From contig JAGOQK010000001.1 of NCBI GenBank assembly GCA_017991475.1, positions 105,689 to 169,688 of the forward strand: a stretch of DNA of 64,000 nucleotides. The letters are read 5' to 3'. The DNA comes from Minisyncoccota bacterium. GTDB lineage: Bacteria; Patescibacteriota; Minisyncoccia; Phycocordibacterales; PALSA-1337. Positions 10,761 to 50,278 of this stretch are shown here, piece after piece. Under the pieces are notes generated by a model. That model made no database searches. It saw only the letters and a program-made list of their open reading frames with translations, and was not told the origin of the DNA. Positions within the stretch are counted from its first letter, which is position 1. Every line of letters begins with the position of its first letter. The translations under genes and the position numbers were made by a program.

Positions 10761-11741
10761 TTATACTTTGAGATACCTTCGAGCGGCAACGTAGCTCGCC
10801 AATCCCCCCACTACGACACCGAGACCCATTATGAGCAGAAATATCTGTGTGAAATTGGCCACGAAATAGCGGGAAAGGATATTCACTGCAAGCTCGAAAT
10901 CTGCTGCAACCTGAACACCAGCGAAACGAAGGACCAAAACATCACTCCAGTATGCAACTGCTGCCATACAGATGAGCGCTATGGTGCCTGACAATATGCC
11001 GTACATGACTCCAGAAACCACGAGCGGACCGCGAACGTAAATGTTACTTGCTCCTACAAGCTTCATGACGGATATCTCATCTTTCGAGGTATATACGATA
11101 AGACGAATAGTATTCCAAACGACCACAATCGACACTAATATTAATATGAGAGCTATAACAGTTCCCGCCTGCTCTACTGCAGGAATAATGCGCCCGAGAC
11201 GGTCAATAATAAGTTTGTTCTGTTGATAGTTGACCTTCTCGACTATCGGGTCACCGGAAGCATCTACAGGTGCCTTATTTTCAAGAAAATTTGCGATACT
11301 TCCATACTGACCAGGATCTTTGGCTTTGATATTGAGAACCGCAGGAAATGGGTTGGTGCCGATCTCGTCGAGACCCTGCATAATGAGGGCATTACCTTGC
11401 CACTTCTCTGAAAACTGCTCGAGAGCGAGATCACGAGAGACATACTCGACACGAGAAACCTCTGCGAGTCGTTCGATATCCTTCTTGAGTGACAAAATAT
11501 CATCTTCAGGGGCTTCGAGAGTGAAGTAGACATTGATATCAACTTTCTCCTTCACATCGGCAATAAGGCTCTTACTGAACGCTCCTGCAAATATAATGCC
11601 GCCCACTGTTACGAGCGATAGTGTCATGACGACAACTGCAGCAAATGACAGGAAGCCATTGCGCCAGAAATTGACGAAGCCTGTACGTGTAATTCTTTTA
11701 AAAGTGGTAAATATCATAAAAATGCAAAATTTAAAAATCAA
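10761..11741 (-). CDS. ftsX: Cell division ABC-transporter permease FtsX (the true start is probably an internal Met)
   Basis: Four-TM topology with a large periplasmic loop, the conserved KLVGA motif, and the usual position immediately downstream of ftsE. Confidence 0.8.
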   Translation of the reverse strand: MIFKFCIFMIFTTFKRITRTGFVNFWRNGFLSFAAVVVMTLSLVTVGGIIFAGAFSKSLIADVKEKVDINVYFTLEAPEDDILSLKKDIERLAEVSRVEYVSRDLALEQFSEKWQGNALIMQGLDEIGTNPFPAVLNIKAKDPGQYGSIANFLENKAPVDASGDPIVEKVNYQQNKLIIDRLGRIIPAVEQAGTVIALILILVSIVVVWNTIRLIVYTSKDEISVMKLVGASNIYVRGPLVVSGVMYGILSGTIALICMAAVAYWSDVLVLRFAGVQVAADFELAVNILSRYFVANFTQIFLLIMGLGVVVGGLASYVAARRYLKV

Positions 11742-11820
11742 AATGCAAAATTACAATTCAAAATGCAAAAATTTTGCTGGAGTTTCATTTTAAATTTTGA
11801 ATTGTAATTTTGCATTTTGA
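11738..11820. repeat. AT-rich perfect 27-bp inverted repeat (arms 11738-11764 and 11794-11820, 29-nt loop) overlapping three 20-nt-spaced direct copies of CAAAATGCAAAA
   Basis: Read directly from the sequence in the ftsE-ftsX intergenic region. Confidence 0.7.
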
Positions 11821-13527: not shown

Positions 13528-13600
13528 AGCCGAAGCCCGGGATCGAACCGGGGACCCTTGCTTTACGAAAGCAATGCTCTACCAACTGAGCTACTTCGGC
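13528..13600 (-). tRNA. tRNA-Thr (anticodon CGU)
   Basis: Manual cloverleaf: acceptor GCCGAAG/CTTCGGC, D-arm GCTC-AGTTGGTA-GAGC, anticodon arm TTGCT-TTCGTAA-AGCAA, T-arm CCCGG-TTCGATC-CCGGG. Confidence 0.8.
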
Positions 13601-13693
13601 ACCGCTTCGCTCTACGCCATACTCCGAGCTTCGCAGTGCAGGCAATAAATAACCAAGCTTGCACTTCGAAGCTTGCGCAGCTTAGCGAAGAAG

Positions 13694-13769
13694 TGGAGCC
13701 AATGTCCGGGATTGAACCGGAGACCTCGCCATTACCAATGGCGTGCTCTACCAACTGAGCTACATTGGC
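13694..13769 (-). tRNA. tRNA-Thr (anticodon GGU), CCA encoded
   Basis: Acceptor GCCAATG/CATTGGC, anticodon arm CGCCA-TTGGTAA-TGGCG, T-arm TCCGG-TTCAATC-CCGGA, 3' CCA present. Confidence 0.8.
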
Positions 13770-13854
13770 GCAATCAATCTATCATTGCACAACCAGACAA
13801 CAATAGCTTATTTATTGAATATTTTCAATCCGCGCCCCTCTCGGAGCTACACTC

Positions 13855-13915
13855 CTCACAACTGCGCCATATAAAAAACTGAACATATCGTTCAGTTTTT
13901 TATATGGCGCAGTTG
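13855..13915. repeat. Perfect 26-bp hairpin whose distal arm is the 3' acceptor/CCA end of tRNA-Asp
   Basis: caactgcgccatataaaaaactgaac-atatcg-gttcagttttttatatggcgcagttg. Confidence 0.7.
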
Positions 13916-13981
13916 ACGGGGCTCGAACCCGCAACCTCTCCCGTGACAGGGGAGTGCTCTAACCAATTGAGCTACAACTGC
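13905..13981 (-). tRNA. tRNA-Asp (anticodon GUC), CCA encoded
   Basis: Acceptor GCAGTTG/CAACTGC, anticodon arm CTCCC-CTGTCAC-GGGAG, T-loop TTCGAGC, discriminator G. Confidence 0.8.
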
Positions 13982-14044
13982 ATATCGCACCAGTCGCATC
14001 AGTCTAGCAAAAAAGCATAAAAACACAAGAATGACCCACTAATG

Positions 14045-14118
14045 TGTCGGCGGAAGGGATCGAACCTTCGACCTTGGGCTTATGAGTCCCACGCTCTAAC
14101 CAACTGAGCTACGCCGAC
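14045..14118 (-). tRNA. tRNA-Met elongator (anticodon CAU; the Ile2 lysidine type cannot be excluded)
   Basis: Acceptor GTCGGCG/CGCCGAC with a G1-C72 pair, anticodon loop CTCATAA, T-loop TTCGATC. Confidence 0.7.
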
Positions 14119-14217
14119 ATTGATACTACGATGTTTGAGATAATAATCGAAAAAACAGCTTTATGCAAACCTCATCCTTGCATTCATGGAGATACTATGG
14201 CAAAATCAATGAATCAT

Positions 14218-14289
14218 CGCGGGGTAGGGTAACGGTAACCCGTCAGGCTCATAACCTGAAAATTGCTGGTTCGATTCCGGCCCCCGCAA
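14218..14289 (+). tRNA. tRNA-fMet initiator (anticodon CAU)
   Basis: C1xA72 mismatch at the end of the acceptor stem (CGCGGGG/CCCCGCA) and discriminator A73; anticodon arm TCAGG-CTCATAA-CCTGA; T-arm GCTGG-TTCGATT-CCGGC. Confidence 0.7.
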
Positions 14290-34054: not shown

Positions 34055-34141
34055 CGGAGAGAGTGGGATTCGAACCCACGGTTCTCTTGCGAGAACGGCG
34101 GTTTAGTAAACCGCTGCCTTAAACCACTCAGCCATCTCTCC
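34055..34141 (-). tRNA. tRNA-Ser, type II (long variable arm), apparent anticodon ACU
   Basis: Acceptor GGAGAGA/TCTCTCC, discriminator G73, anticodon arm GCGGT-TTACTAA-ACCGC, 19-nt variable arm, T-arm GTGGG-TTCGAAT-CCCAC. Confidence 0.7.
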
Positions 34142-34226
34142 GGATAGTGTGAATCATAACCGAACATACTGAGTTGCGCCAGTTTTTGATAAATACGACA
34201 TTTTATGCAAGAATGGCAAAGCAACT

Positions 34227-34313
34227 GGAGACGTGGTGGAGTGGTCTAACATACCTCTTTGCTAAAGAGGCAGGCCTTAACGGGCCTCGAGGGTTCGAAT
34301 CCCTCCGTCTCCG
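34227..34313 (+). tRNA. tRNA-Ser (anticodon GCU), type II
   Basis: Acceptor GGAGACG/CGTCTCC, anticodon arm CCTCT-TTGCTAA-AGAGG, long variable arm, T-loop TTCGAAT, discriminator G. Confidence 0.8.
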
Positions 34314-40016: not shown

Positions 40017-40090
40017 TCCGCCCTCTTGGATTCGAACCAAGGACCCCAGAGGTATAAGCTCTGTGCTCTAACCAACTGAGCTAAGGGCGG
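40017..40090 (-). tRNA. tRNA-Ile (anticodon UAU)
   Basis: Acceptor CCGCCCT/AGGGCGG, D-arm GCTC-AGTTGGTT-AGAGC, anticodon arm CAGAG-CTTATAC-CTCTG (TAT at positions 34-36), T-arm CTTGG-TTCGAAT-CCAAG, discriminator A. Confidence 0.75.
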
Positions 40091-43120: not shown

Positions 43121-43126
43121 TTGTTG

Positions 43127-43491
43127 TGGAAGTGCGGGGAATCGAACCCCGGTGCAATCGATATGCGTCTAACGAATCTACGGCGGTAGAATGCCTTGAA
43201 GTTTAACCGATGCGTTAAGAAAGCAGACAAAACGCGCACCAGCGATCTCTTTTATTCGGACAATGAGGTGAGAAGGCTCATCTGTCCTACATTCAGGTTA
43301 TAACACCCGTCCCTCGAGTCAGAATCCCCCGAGGCGAGTGCGTTCCTTATGCAGGAACGAATGCAAAGTCCTTAGCTCCGAAATACGGAGAAACGGTTGA
43401 TTTAGCATTTAGGGTTTCCGTCAGATTTACGAGGTAACGGTGCTCGCGCCGCACGAACGAACATGGTCGACTGTCTATGCCGATCACTCCC
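43127..43491 (-). ncRNA. ssrA: tmRNA (SsrA)
   Basis: 3' tRNA-like end GGGGTTCGATTCCCCGCACTTCC-A. 5' GGGAGTG pairs with the 3' strand and includes a G3-U70 wobble (the Ala identity element). An internal tag-type ORF ends ...GAKDFAFVPA-UAA. Adjacent to smpB. Confidence 0.85.
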
Positions 43492-49572: not shown

Positions 49573-49959
49573 TTACTTACTGATTTCTATTTTCGCTTTA
49601 CGGCCCAAAATCCACGCGACCACTGCCCCACCGAGCACATCATCAACCATATCTTTGACCGTATCGATGTAGTAGAGCTTGGTCCAGAGTGGATGTCCTG
49701 TCAGTTTATATACTATTTCGAATAATTCCCAGACAATGCCGATAACGATGACACCGAGAATAACATTTCTACGAGAAAATAGTGCGCCTTGACGATACGA
49801 ACGCAACAGTGCCGCGACGAAAAGACCAATACCTACACCACCTGCGATATGCATGAATACATCGTACCCATCGATCGTGTAATAGTATCCATCAAGACCA
49901 CTAATATGTGCACCGAGGACCAGAGCAAGAACAATAAAAGCTGAAATATATATGCGCAT
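49573..49959 (-). CDS. Small polytopic membrane protein (VanZ-like?)
   Basis: 128 aa with 3-4 TM helices. Preceded by a structured leader and a terminator. Confidence 0.5.
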   Translation of the reverse strand: MRIYISAFIVLALVLGAHISGLDGYYYTIDGYDVFMHIAGGVGIGLFVAALLRSYRQGALFSRRNVILGVIVIGIVWELFEIVYKLTGHPLWTKLYYIDTVKDMVDDVLGGAVVAWILGRKAKIEISK

Positions 49960-49992
49960 CGGTTAAGTATAGGTGTTTCTCGTTGATAAATC

Positions 49993-50015
49993 AAAAACCG
50001 CTCAATAATGAGCGG
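49993..50015 (-). terminator. Intrinsic terminator (CCGCUCA-uuau-UGAGCGG plus U5) 30 nt upstream of the membrane-protein start codon
   Basis: Read on the minus strand; a perfect 7-bp GC-rich stem followed by UUUUU. Confidence 0.6.
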
Positions 50016-50023
50016 TACTTGAT

Positions 50024-50155
50024 CGGTTACGAAGTATTATTAACCTAGTTAGACTAGGTGGGTGCCCGCAAGATCAGTGCCGAAGCACGATCTAATGTGA
50101 GCCGAAGCTCGTTGGGCTCCCAAAATATGTGGTATAGGATTTAATACTCCGTAAC
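50024..50155 (-). ncRNA. Candidate structured RNA / cis-regulatory leader (about 132 nt) closed by a 15-bp helix
   Basis: On the minus strand, the 5' GGUUACGGAGUAUUA pairs with the 3' UAAUACUUCGUAACC. Internal hairpins GAGC-UUCG-GCUC, GUGC-UUCG-GCAC and CCUAG-UCUAA-CUAGG. A GGAGG followed by an ATG-initiated 38-codon ORF (50048-50164) lies inside it. Confidence 0.35.
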
Positions 50156-50278
50156 CTGTACTCATTGTATTCCTCCTACACACAGATGCAAGTGCCTGAA
50201 GTAGTTACGACATTTTTTCTCACACGAGACAATGTTGACAAGTAGTTTTTTGACTTACGACTGTCGACTGGTGACTTT

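Follow-up and report, generated by a model that had tools for sequence, protein, structure and literature searches.

The 6S RNAs, described as present in nearly all bacteria (PMC8414754), are rod-like molecules in which a central bubble separates a closing stem from an apical stem (PMC8876501). In the Bacillus subtilis 6S-1 RNA a small preformed hairpin is found in the 3′ strand of the bubble, and in Escherichia coli the segment that follows the upstream helix forms a release hairpin after synthesis of the product RNA (pRNA). Truncated forms of 6S-1 of 78–82 nt, consisting of the bubble and short arms, retain polymerase binding, pRNA templating and release (PMC8876501). Here, we describe an RNA of 132 nt encoded directly downstream of the ndk gene on the minus strand (positions 50025–50156) of a 64,000 nt stretch of DNA from the metagenome-assembled genome of a Minisyncoccota bacterium (Candidatus Pacebacteria / Patescibacteria; assembly GCA_017991475.1, contig JAGOQK010000001.1, positions 105,689 to 169,688; this whole stretch is referred to below as the window) and present the evidence that it is probably a miniaturised, lineage-specific 6S (ssrS-type) RNA of the Paceibacteria.

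An earlier note on this DNA had drawn attention to a closing helix, three hairpins, a GGAGG sequence followed by an ATG and a terminator, and all of these elements are indeed present on the minus strand. Folding of positions 49990–50215 with RNAfold gives the same architecture, with a minimum free energy (MFE) of −83.7 kcal/mol compared to a mean of −53.1 ± 4.5 kcal/mol for shuffled sequences (z = −6.8). None of 200 shuffles folds as well, and the structure is therefore far beyond what would be expected by chance. Besides the closing helix of 15 bp, the MFE structure has an unpaired 5′ strand of 20 nt, a GGG-A-GCCC / GGGC-A-CCC helix enclosing two UUCG hairpins, a third hairpin and a separate terminator. 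In the closing helix, GGUUACGGAGUAUUA (50156–50142) pairs with UAAUACUUCGUAACC (50039–50025). Next comes the 5′ side of the central bubble (50141–50122, AAUCCUAUACCACAUAUUUU), which carries a C-U-A-n-A motif and is the segment that the Rfam 6S model aligns to its own 5′ central bubble. The apical domain (50121–50060) follows, with the GGG-A-GCCC / GGGC-A-CCC helix, in which an A·A mismatch is conserved, enclosing the hairpins GAGC-UUCG-GCUC (50110–50099) and AGAUCGUGC-UUCG-GCAC-U-GAUCU (50093–50071). The 3′ side of the bubble (50062–50040) is made up of a near-invariant CCCACCU, the hairpin ACCUAGU-CUA-ACUAGGU (50059–50043) and, finally, UAA.

The first homologues came from tracing relatives of the 128 amino acid protein encoded downstream of the RNA to their contigs. 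All of these have the gene order adk–map–ndk, a gap of 260–390 nt, a DUF2238 gene and a gene for a beta-CASP protein, and the gap can be aligned, with compensatory changes in every helix. A scan anchored on ndk, using one genome per GTDB species, yielded 80 further Paceibacteria loci (labelled variously as Taylorbacteria, Parcubacteria, Paceibacterota and Minisyncoccia). A covariance model (R1) built from eight sequences matches 74 loci at E < 1e-3, the window included, with the RNA lying on the ndk strand directly 3′ of ndk, and a second-generation model adds five more divergent loci. The RNA is thus found after ndk in about 75 species of the Candidate Phyla Radiation (CPR). In the window itself, R1 identifies the RNA with a score of 151 bits (E 7e-34), the sole real match; the only other is a spurious, AT-rich stretch at 11741–11817 (E 0.08, GC 0.21).

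Covariation among relatives, a check that the earlier note had proposed, is extensive. In the 74-sequence alignment, 94.5% of cells are standard pairs, compared to 30–42% when the partners are slid by one to three columns, and 37 of the 42 base pairs have changed on both sides; in 500 shuffles the observed values were never matched. All 15 pairs of the closing stem (helices 1 and 2) show compensatory change, helices 3, 4 and 6 of the apical domain covary, as do the distal pairs of the 3′ hairpin (A-U/G-C and G-C/U-A), and both strands of the closing stem are supported by the MFE fold and by covariation alike. The alignment was fitted to the model, with single-sequence folding providing an independent check: of 74 individual folds, 73 contain the closing stem, 67 the 3′ hairpin and 61 the GGG/CCC helix. 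On this comparative evidence, the structure of the RNA is under selection.

Across the family, the RNA ranges from 114 to 187 nt in length (median 135), with a closing helix of 13–15 bp. The consensus reads gGuU, closing stem, uaaa..CuAnA.. in the bubble, GGGA..C, variable apical hairpins, G..ACCCACCU, hairpin, aGGu and closing stem once more. GGGA, ACCCACCU and aGGu, the first of these near-invariant, are each at least 90% conserved, and within the 5′ bubble motif the C is found in 72 of 74 sequences, the U in 65 and the two As in 70 and 72, respectively. The apical hairpins are less constrained. Their loops are UUCG in the window copy and CUUG in most relatives, and the first hairpin has been lost in five loci (L008, L017, L021, L025 and L043, with RNAs of 114–119 nt) and expanded in four others (L030, 2210–2396, 187 nt; L090, 2224–2393, and L028, 2163–2332, both 170 nt; L041, 2165–2330, 166 nt). 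The apical domain is evolutionarily plastic, unlike the bubble and the GGGA/CCCACCU core, which are fixed.

The variable base of the 5′ bubble motif tracks the sequence of the 3′ hairpin (alignment A6, columns 28–32 against 245–248): CUAGA is accompanied by CCUAG except in two loci, CUACA by CCUGN only and CUAUA mostly by CCUAG. No compensatory logic was found in this correlation, which may reflect shared ancestry rather than pairing. A pairing of the bubble CUA with the UAG of the 3′ hairpin arm was considered and rejected: C28 is invariant and its would-be partner varies between G, U, A and C.

Conserved signals flank the RNA on both sides. With the upstream sequences aligned at the RNA's first base, 70 of 74 loci show a TAnA[AC]T hexamer whose end is 5–9 nt before that base (exactly 7 nt in 57 of them), with a TTGCAT, TTGACG or TTGTAT hexamer 16 nt further 5′ (recorded as CTTGCA, TTGACG or TTGTAT in the homologous loci). 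In the window, the −35 hexamer is TTGCAT (50191–50186) and the −10 hexamer TACAAT (50169–50164). From the conserved spacing, transcription is predicted to start at A50157 or G50156, where the closing helix begins, and this places the GGAGG in the promoter spacer and the ATG on the −10 box. At the other end, an intrinsic terminator (49990–50024) has its stem at 50016–49997 and its T-run at 49997–49993, with AUCAA/UUGAU pairing lengthening the stem. The stem of this terminator, which the earlier note had pointed out, consists of eight pairs, five of them G-C, and is followed by T5. A hairpin and T-run are present within 80 nt 3′ of the RNA in 69 of 74 loci. The RNA is predicted, from sequence, to be an independent transcription unit with its own sigma-70-type promoter and intrinsic terminator, in line with the independent small RNA (sRNA) that the earlier note had offered as its fallback.

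Two further features of the promoter region deserve mention. The AGG located two bases 5′ of the −10 box (part of the GGAGG at 50176–50172) is kept in most of the promoters of the RNA and is not seen at the DUF2238 promoter described below; it may be a promoter-specific element. Further upstream, positions 50204–50241 (minus strand) contain a conserved block with TGTCAAC...TTGTCT, an A-run and (A/G)TGTCnnAAC about 12 nt 5′ of the −35 hexamer. Most loci with a spacer behind ndk have a block of this type, and it is absent from L072, L062, L026 and L050, where the ndk stop codon abuts the −35 hexamer. Showing no covariation with the 5′ end of the RNA, it may represent an UP-like element, a further promoter or the site of a regulator. 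A pairing of ATGTCGTAAC within the block with GGUUACG at the RNA 5′ end was rejected, as the changes in L003 and L006 are not compensating, and ATGTCGTAAC is more likely to be a promoter-associated or protein-binding element.

How does this RNA relate to known families? Neither a gathering-threshold Rfam scan of the whole window, as suggested by the earlier note, nor a scan at E ≤ 10 of the 421 nt around the RNA assigned it to any Rfam family; riboswitch families were also absent from the Rfam scans. The earlier note had matched by eye none of the classes that it considered, a list in which 6S RNA did not figure. 6S RNA surfaced when homologues and a narrower slice of the window were scanned. 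Permissive Rfam scans of 38 homologous loci (~66 kb each) returned the 6S family RF00013 three times, with the strand correct and the boundaries a few bases at most from those of the RNA (L056, 20.9 bits; L027, 20.8 bits; L036, 23.7 bits), and when 151 nt with the window copy were scanned, 6S was the sole match (12.2 bits, E 1.2). 6S is alone among Rfam families in recurring on the RNA.

The printed alignments say more than the scores do. The Rfam 6S consensus reads ...auaauaGGGagccc... before and ...gggcaCCCACCUggaAcagCaGGuU... after the apical region, and the Paceibacteria RNAs read ...UAUUUUGGGAGCCC... and ...GGGCACCCACCUAGUCUAACUAGGUU... in the same places. The consensus carries GGGagccc...gggcaCCC at the apical position and caCCCACCUgg..caGGuU at the 3′ bubble, so that the upper-case letters, the most conserved in 6S RNA, are the near-invariant letters of the Paceibacteria family and occupy the same structural positions. 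In the alignment of L036, AGGUU pairs with the AAACC that opens the 5′ bubble, which corresponds to the canonical inner ‘downstream’ helix. The likeness to RF00013 extends to overall organisation: both are free-standing sRNAs whose 5′ and 3′ ends pair into a stem, with a single-stranded 5′ bubble strand of ~20 nt, an apical helix that begins with GGGAG and ends with CACCC, an ACCU immediately after it and an AGG(U)U further downstream. The closing stem, large central bubble and apical stem of the rod-like 6S fold are thus all present, if with a branched apical arm, as is the boundary signature GGG..., ...CCCACCU, ..GG.U, in an RNA with defined gene boundaries and a conserved structure.

Comparison with individual 6S RNAs is also informative. 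Like the Paceibacteria RNA, B. subtilis 6S-1 has a preformed 3′ bubble hairpin, and its pRNA starts at a C of the 5′ bubble, as is predicted for the Paceibacteria RNA. In E. coli ssrS (the sequence used is a 100% match to the annotated ssrS in 5,426 of 5,426 genomes) the upstream helix ends with ...CACAUUC and is followed by ACCUUGAACCAAGGGUUCAAGG, the release-hairpin segment. The likeness here is that of a helix ending in C and followed by ACCU-UGAACCAAGG-GUUCAAGG, with C-ACCU-UG...AAGGGUU in E. coli against C-ACCU-AG...UAGGUU in the Paceibacteria. The E. coli GGUUC is, however, paired with GAGCC in the ground state and forms a hairpin on release only, whereas the Paceibacteria hairpin belongs to the predicted ground state. 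The neighbouring genes are also different, zapA–ssrS–fau in E. coli and ndk–RNA–(DUF2238)–beta-CASP here.

Several observations weigh against assigning the RNA to 6S. The Rfam 6S scores of 12–24 bits fall well below the curated gathering threshold of 46.4 bits for RF00013, with E values of 1–5 in the unbiased ~66-kb scans, and in the reciprocal direction the family model R2 misses E. coli ssrS (L092, 1001–1184) at E ≤ 10 with filters off, a search that used one reference from a distant phylum only. At a median of 135 nt, compared to about 185 nt for RF00013, the RNA is ~50 nt shorter than a typical 6S RNA. Its closing arm consists of a single perfect helix, the inner P2-like helix of the Rfam model (GAgCC/GGuUC) being absent. 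In place of an apical rod there is a three-way junction carrying two hairpins, of which one is dispensable, and the 3′ bubble hairpin exists already in the free RNA. When the pRNA template (the 5′ end to the invariant C) was masked and the 74 RNAs were refolded, no conserved release or ‘collapse’ helix appeared and the 3′ strand stayed single-stranded. Finally, the RNA is present as a single copy in the 64-kb window, which contains no other 6S match, and it is possible that a canonical 6S RNA is encoded outside it. In view of the sub-threshold scores, the failed reciprocal search, and the size and shape of the RNA, we describe it as a variant of 6S rather than as a member of RF00013 as that family is defined.

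The earlier note had favoured a different explanation, namely a riboswitch or leader-peptide attenuator controlling the gene for the 128 amino acid membrane protein, and the arrangement in the window does bring this to mind: as in terminating riboswitches and attenuators, a structured domain, a terminator and a gene follow one another on the same strand, and a DUF2238 gene occupies the downstream position in 49 of 77 loci. The RNA is kept unchanged, however, in around 20 loci with sufficient flanking sequence in which DUF2238 is absent and the beta-CASP gene comes directly next, and the DUF2238 gene of the window has a −10 box of its own after the terminator, an arrangement that recurs in relatives. 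Nor is there any sign of mutually exclusive terminator and anti-terminator pairing, the closing helix and the terminator coexisting in both MFE and centroid folds. The leader peptide fares worse still. The GGAGG does lie 6 nt before an ATG (50165–50163) in the window, opening a 38-codon open reading frame (ORF) that ends at 50049 (50049–50165), but the ATG is found in only about 36 of 77 loci (L003 has ATA), the ORFs that start there range from 1 to 49 codons, hairpin insertions and deletions are not multiples of three, and conservation follows base pairs rather than codons. With the ATG located in the conserved −10 box, 5′ of the predicted start, and no Pfam match to the 38-codon product, the Shine–Dalgarno sequence and ORF reported in the earlier note exist as described yet show no evidence of forming a translated unit, and we judge the ORF not to be a gene. 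Taken together, the promoter, ATG and DUF2238 data rule out the upstream ORF, the comparative data effectively refuting a leader peptide in which ribosome position would govern the structure, and make cis-acting control of read-through into the membrane protein gene very unlikely. Comparably improbable is an identity as another of the widespread housekeeping RNAs whose ends pair, for instance a bacterial Y RNA (the partner of the Ro-like protein Rsr) or the signal recognition particle (SRP) RNA: the RNA does have a long helix between its 5′ and 3′ ends and a branched distal module, but there is no match to YrlA, SRP RNA or any further family at E ≤ 10, no rsr-like gene nearby and no SRP domain-IV motif.

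A more serious competitor, if still an unlikely one, is a structured sRNA specific to the Paceibacteria that has nothing to do with RNA polymerase, for example a partner or substrate of the beta-CASP ribonuclease or some other ribonucleoprotein (RNP) scaffold, with the likeness to 6S being convergent or coincidental. The sub-threshold 6S scores, the failed reciprocal search and the branched, variable apical domain can all be read in this way, as can the stable ndk–RNA–(DUF2238)–beta-CASP synteny, a beta-CASP gene lying 3′ of the RNA, directly or after DUF2238, in 70 of 77 loci. Against this, the architecture and the two most conserved blocks fall at 6S-equivalent positions in four independent alignments, and neighbourhood alone is no proof of partnership. 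The beta-CASP enzyme RNase J1 of B. subtilis matures and degrades 6S RNAs in that organism (PMC10578484), so the synteny fits a 6S RNA as well, and a processing link between the RNA and the neighbouring beta-CASP enzyme is conceivable by analogy. We give a similarly low, marginally smaller, chance to a CPR-specific RNP RNA whose GGGA/CCCACCU core is ancestral or convergent, acting either as a partner or guide of the beta-CASP enzyme or as a re-purposed 6S derivative in organisms with minimal regulation.

If the RNA is a 6S RNA, as we consider probable, its mode of action can be proposed by analogy with the characterised examples. The ~132-nt RNA would mimic an open promoter and sequester the holoenzyme containing the primary (housekeeping) sigma factor. 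The 15-bp closing stem would act as the downstream duplex in the downstream-DNA channel of RNA polymerase, the 20-nt 5′ strand of the bubble would serve as template in the active site, and the 3′ strand (CCCACCU and the small hairpin) would provide a −10-like non-template element for the primary sigma factor. The GGGAG/CACCC helix, together with the stacked apical hairpin, would correspond to the upstream duplex. Upon nutrient upshift, the 5′ bubble and closing stem would be transcribed by the polymerase into a short pRNA. Its synthesis would probably begin opposite the C that is invariant in CUAnA (position 20 of the RNA, 50137 in the window) and reach the 5′ end within about 20 nt, so that the whole of the 15-bp helix would be unzipped and the enzyme freed. 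The expected pRNA 5′ ends are GGAUUUAAUAC... or GAUUUAAUAC..., complementary to RNA positions 20 or 19 down to 1. pRNA synthesis starts at U44 in E. coli and at C40 in B. subtilis, and the invariant C, five nt from the first pair of the closing stem, is in a comparable position. Since truncated 6S-1 RNAs are still functional, a natural 6S RNA of ~132 nt is mechanistically plausible, even if the truncated molecules are artificial and bind polymerase ~10-fold more weakly; no collapse helix is identified in the Paceibacteria RNA.

A search of the searchable literature found no report of 6S RNA in CPR, Patescibacteria or Parcubacteria, the one paper that mentions Patescibacteria alongside it being concerned with the mitochondrial SRP. 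That such organisms should possess a 6S RNA is in itself expected rather than surprising, but the standard Rfam model does not call the Paceibacteria RNA, leaving a gap in the CPR record. With the alignment and model described here, about 75 species-level Paceibacteria genomes could be annotated with a global regulator of transcription. A natural 6S RNA of ~132 nt with a single 15-bp closing helix would also be an in vivo counterpart of the engineered minimal 6S-1 and would mark those parts of the promoter mimic that are dispensable. For genome scans more generally, the locus is a reminder that a structured RNA, a terminator and a gene in succession are insufficient grounds for calling a riboswitch.

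The genes surrounding the RNA are all encoded on the minus strand. Upstream lie adk (52813–52202), map (52192–51425), a 154 amino acid ORF (51409–50945) and ndk (50890–50279). The product of the 154 amino acid ORF is hydrophobic and has no Pfam or NCBIfam match; map is directly followed by ndk in L001, L003, L005, L006 and L009, and the ORF is probably a lineage-specific insertion. Immediately after the ndk stop codon are four tandem 7-mers, GTCACCA GTCGACA GTCGTAA GTCAAAA (50248–50275), with no obvious conservation in relatives.

Downstream of the RNA, the small membrane protein of 128 amino acids (49959–49573) is 100% identical to the NCBI protein KBC33_00885 and is of the DUF2238 type (PF09997) according to precomputed annotation, our own Pfam search returning a weak match to DUF3021 only. 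Its gene has a separate promoter, TTGATT-17-TATACT (49966–49994), whose −35 hexamer overlaps the T-run of the RNA terminator. The −10 box stops 6 nt short of the ATG at 49959, and many homologous loci have, 3′ of the terminator, a TATACT or TATAAT box with 6–9 nt between it and the next ATG. From this recurring geometry, the DUF2238 gene is probably transcribed from its own start as a leaderless mRNA. Beyond it lies the gene encoding the beta-CASP metallo-beta-lactamase ribonuclease (49560–48172), which is CPSF-like (CPSF/aCPSF1-like, not RNase J). Elsewhere in the window, Rfam matches at the gathering threshold comprise a transfer-messenger RNA (tmRNA; 98 bits, 43124–43491, minus strand) and eight tRNAs, located at 13528–14289 (a cluster of five at 13.5–14.3 kb), 34055–34313 and 40017–40090.

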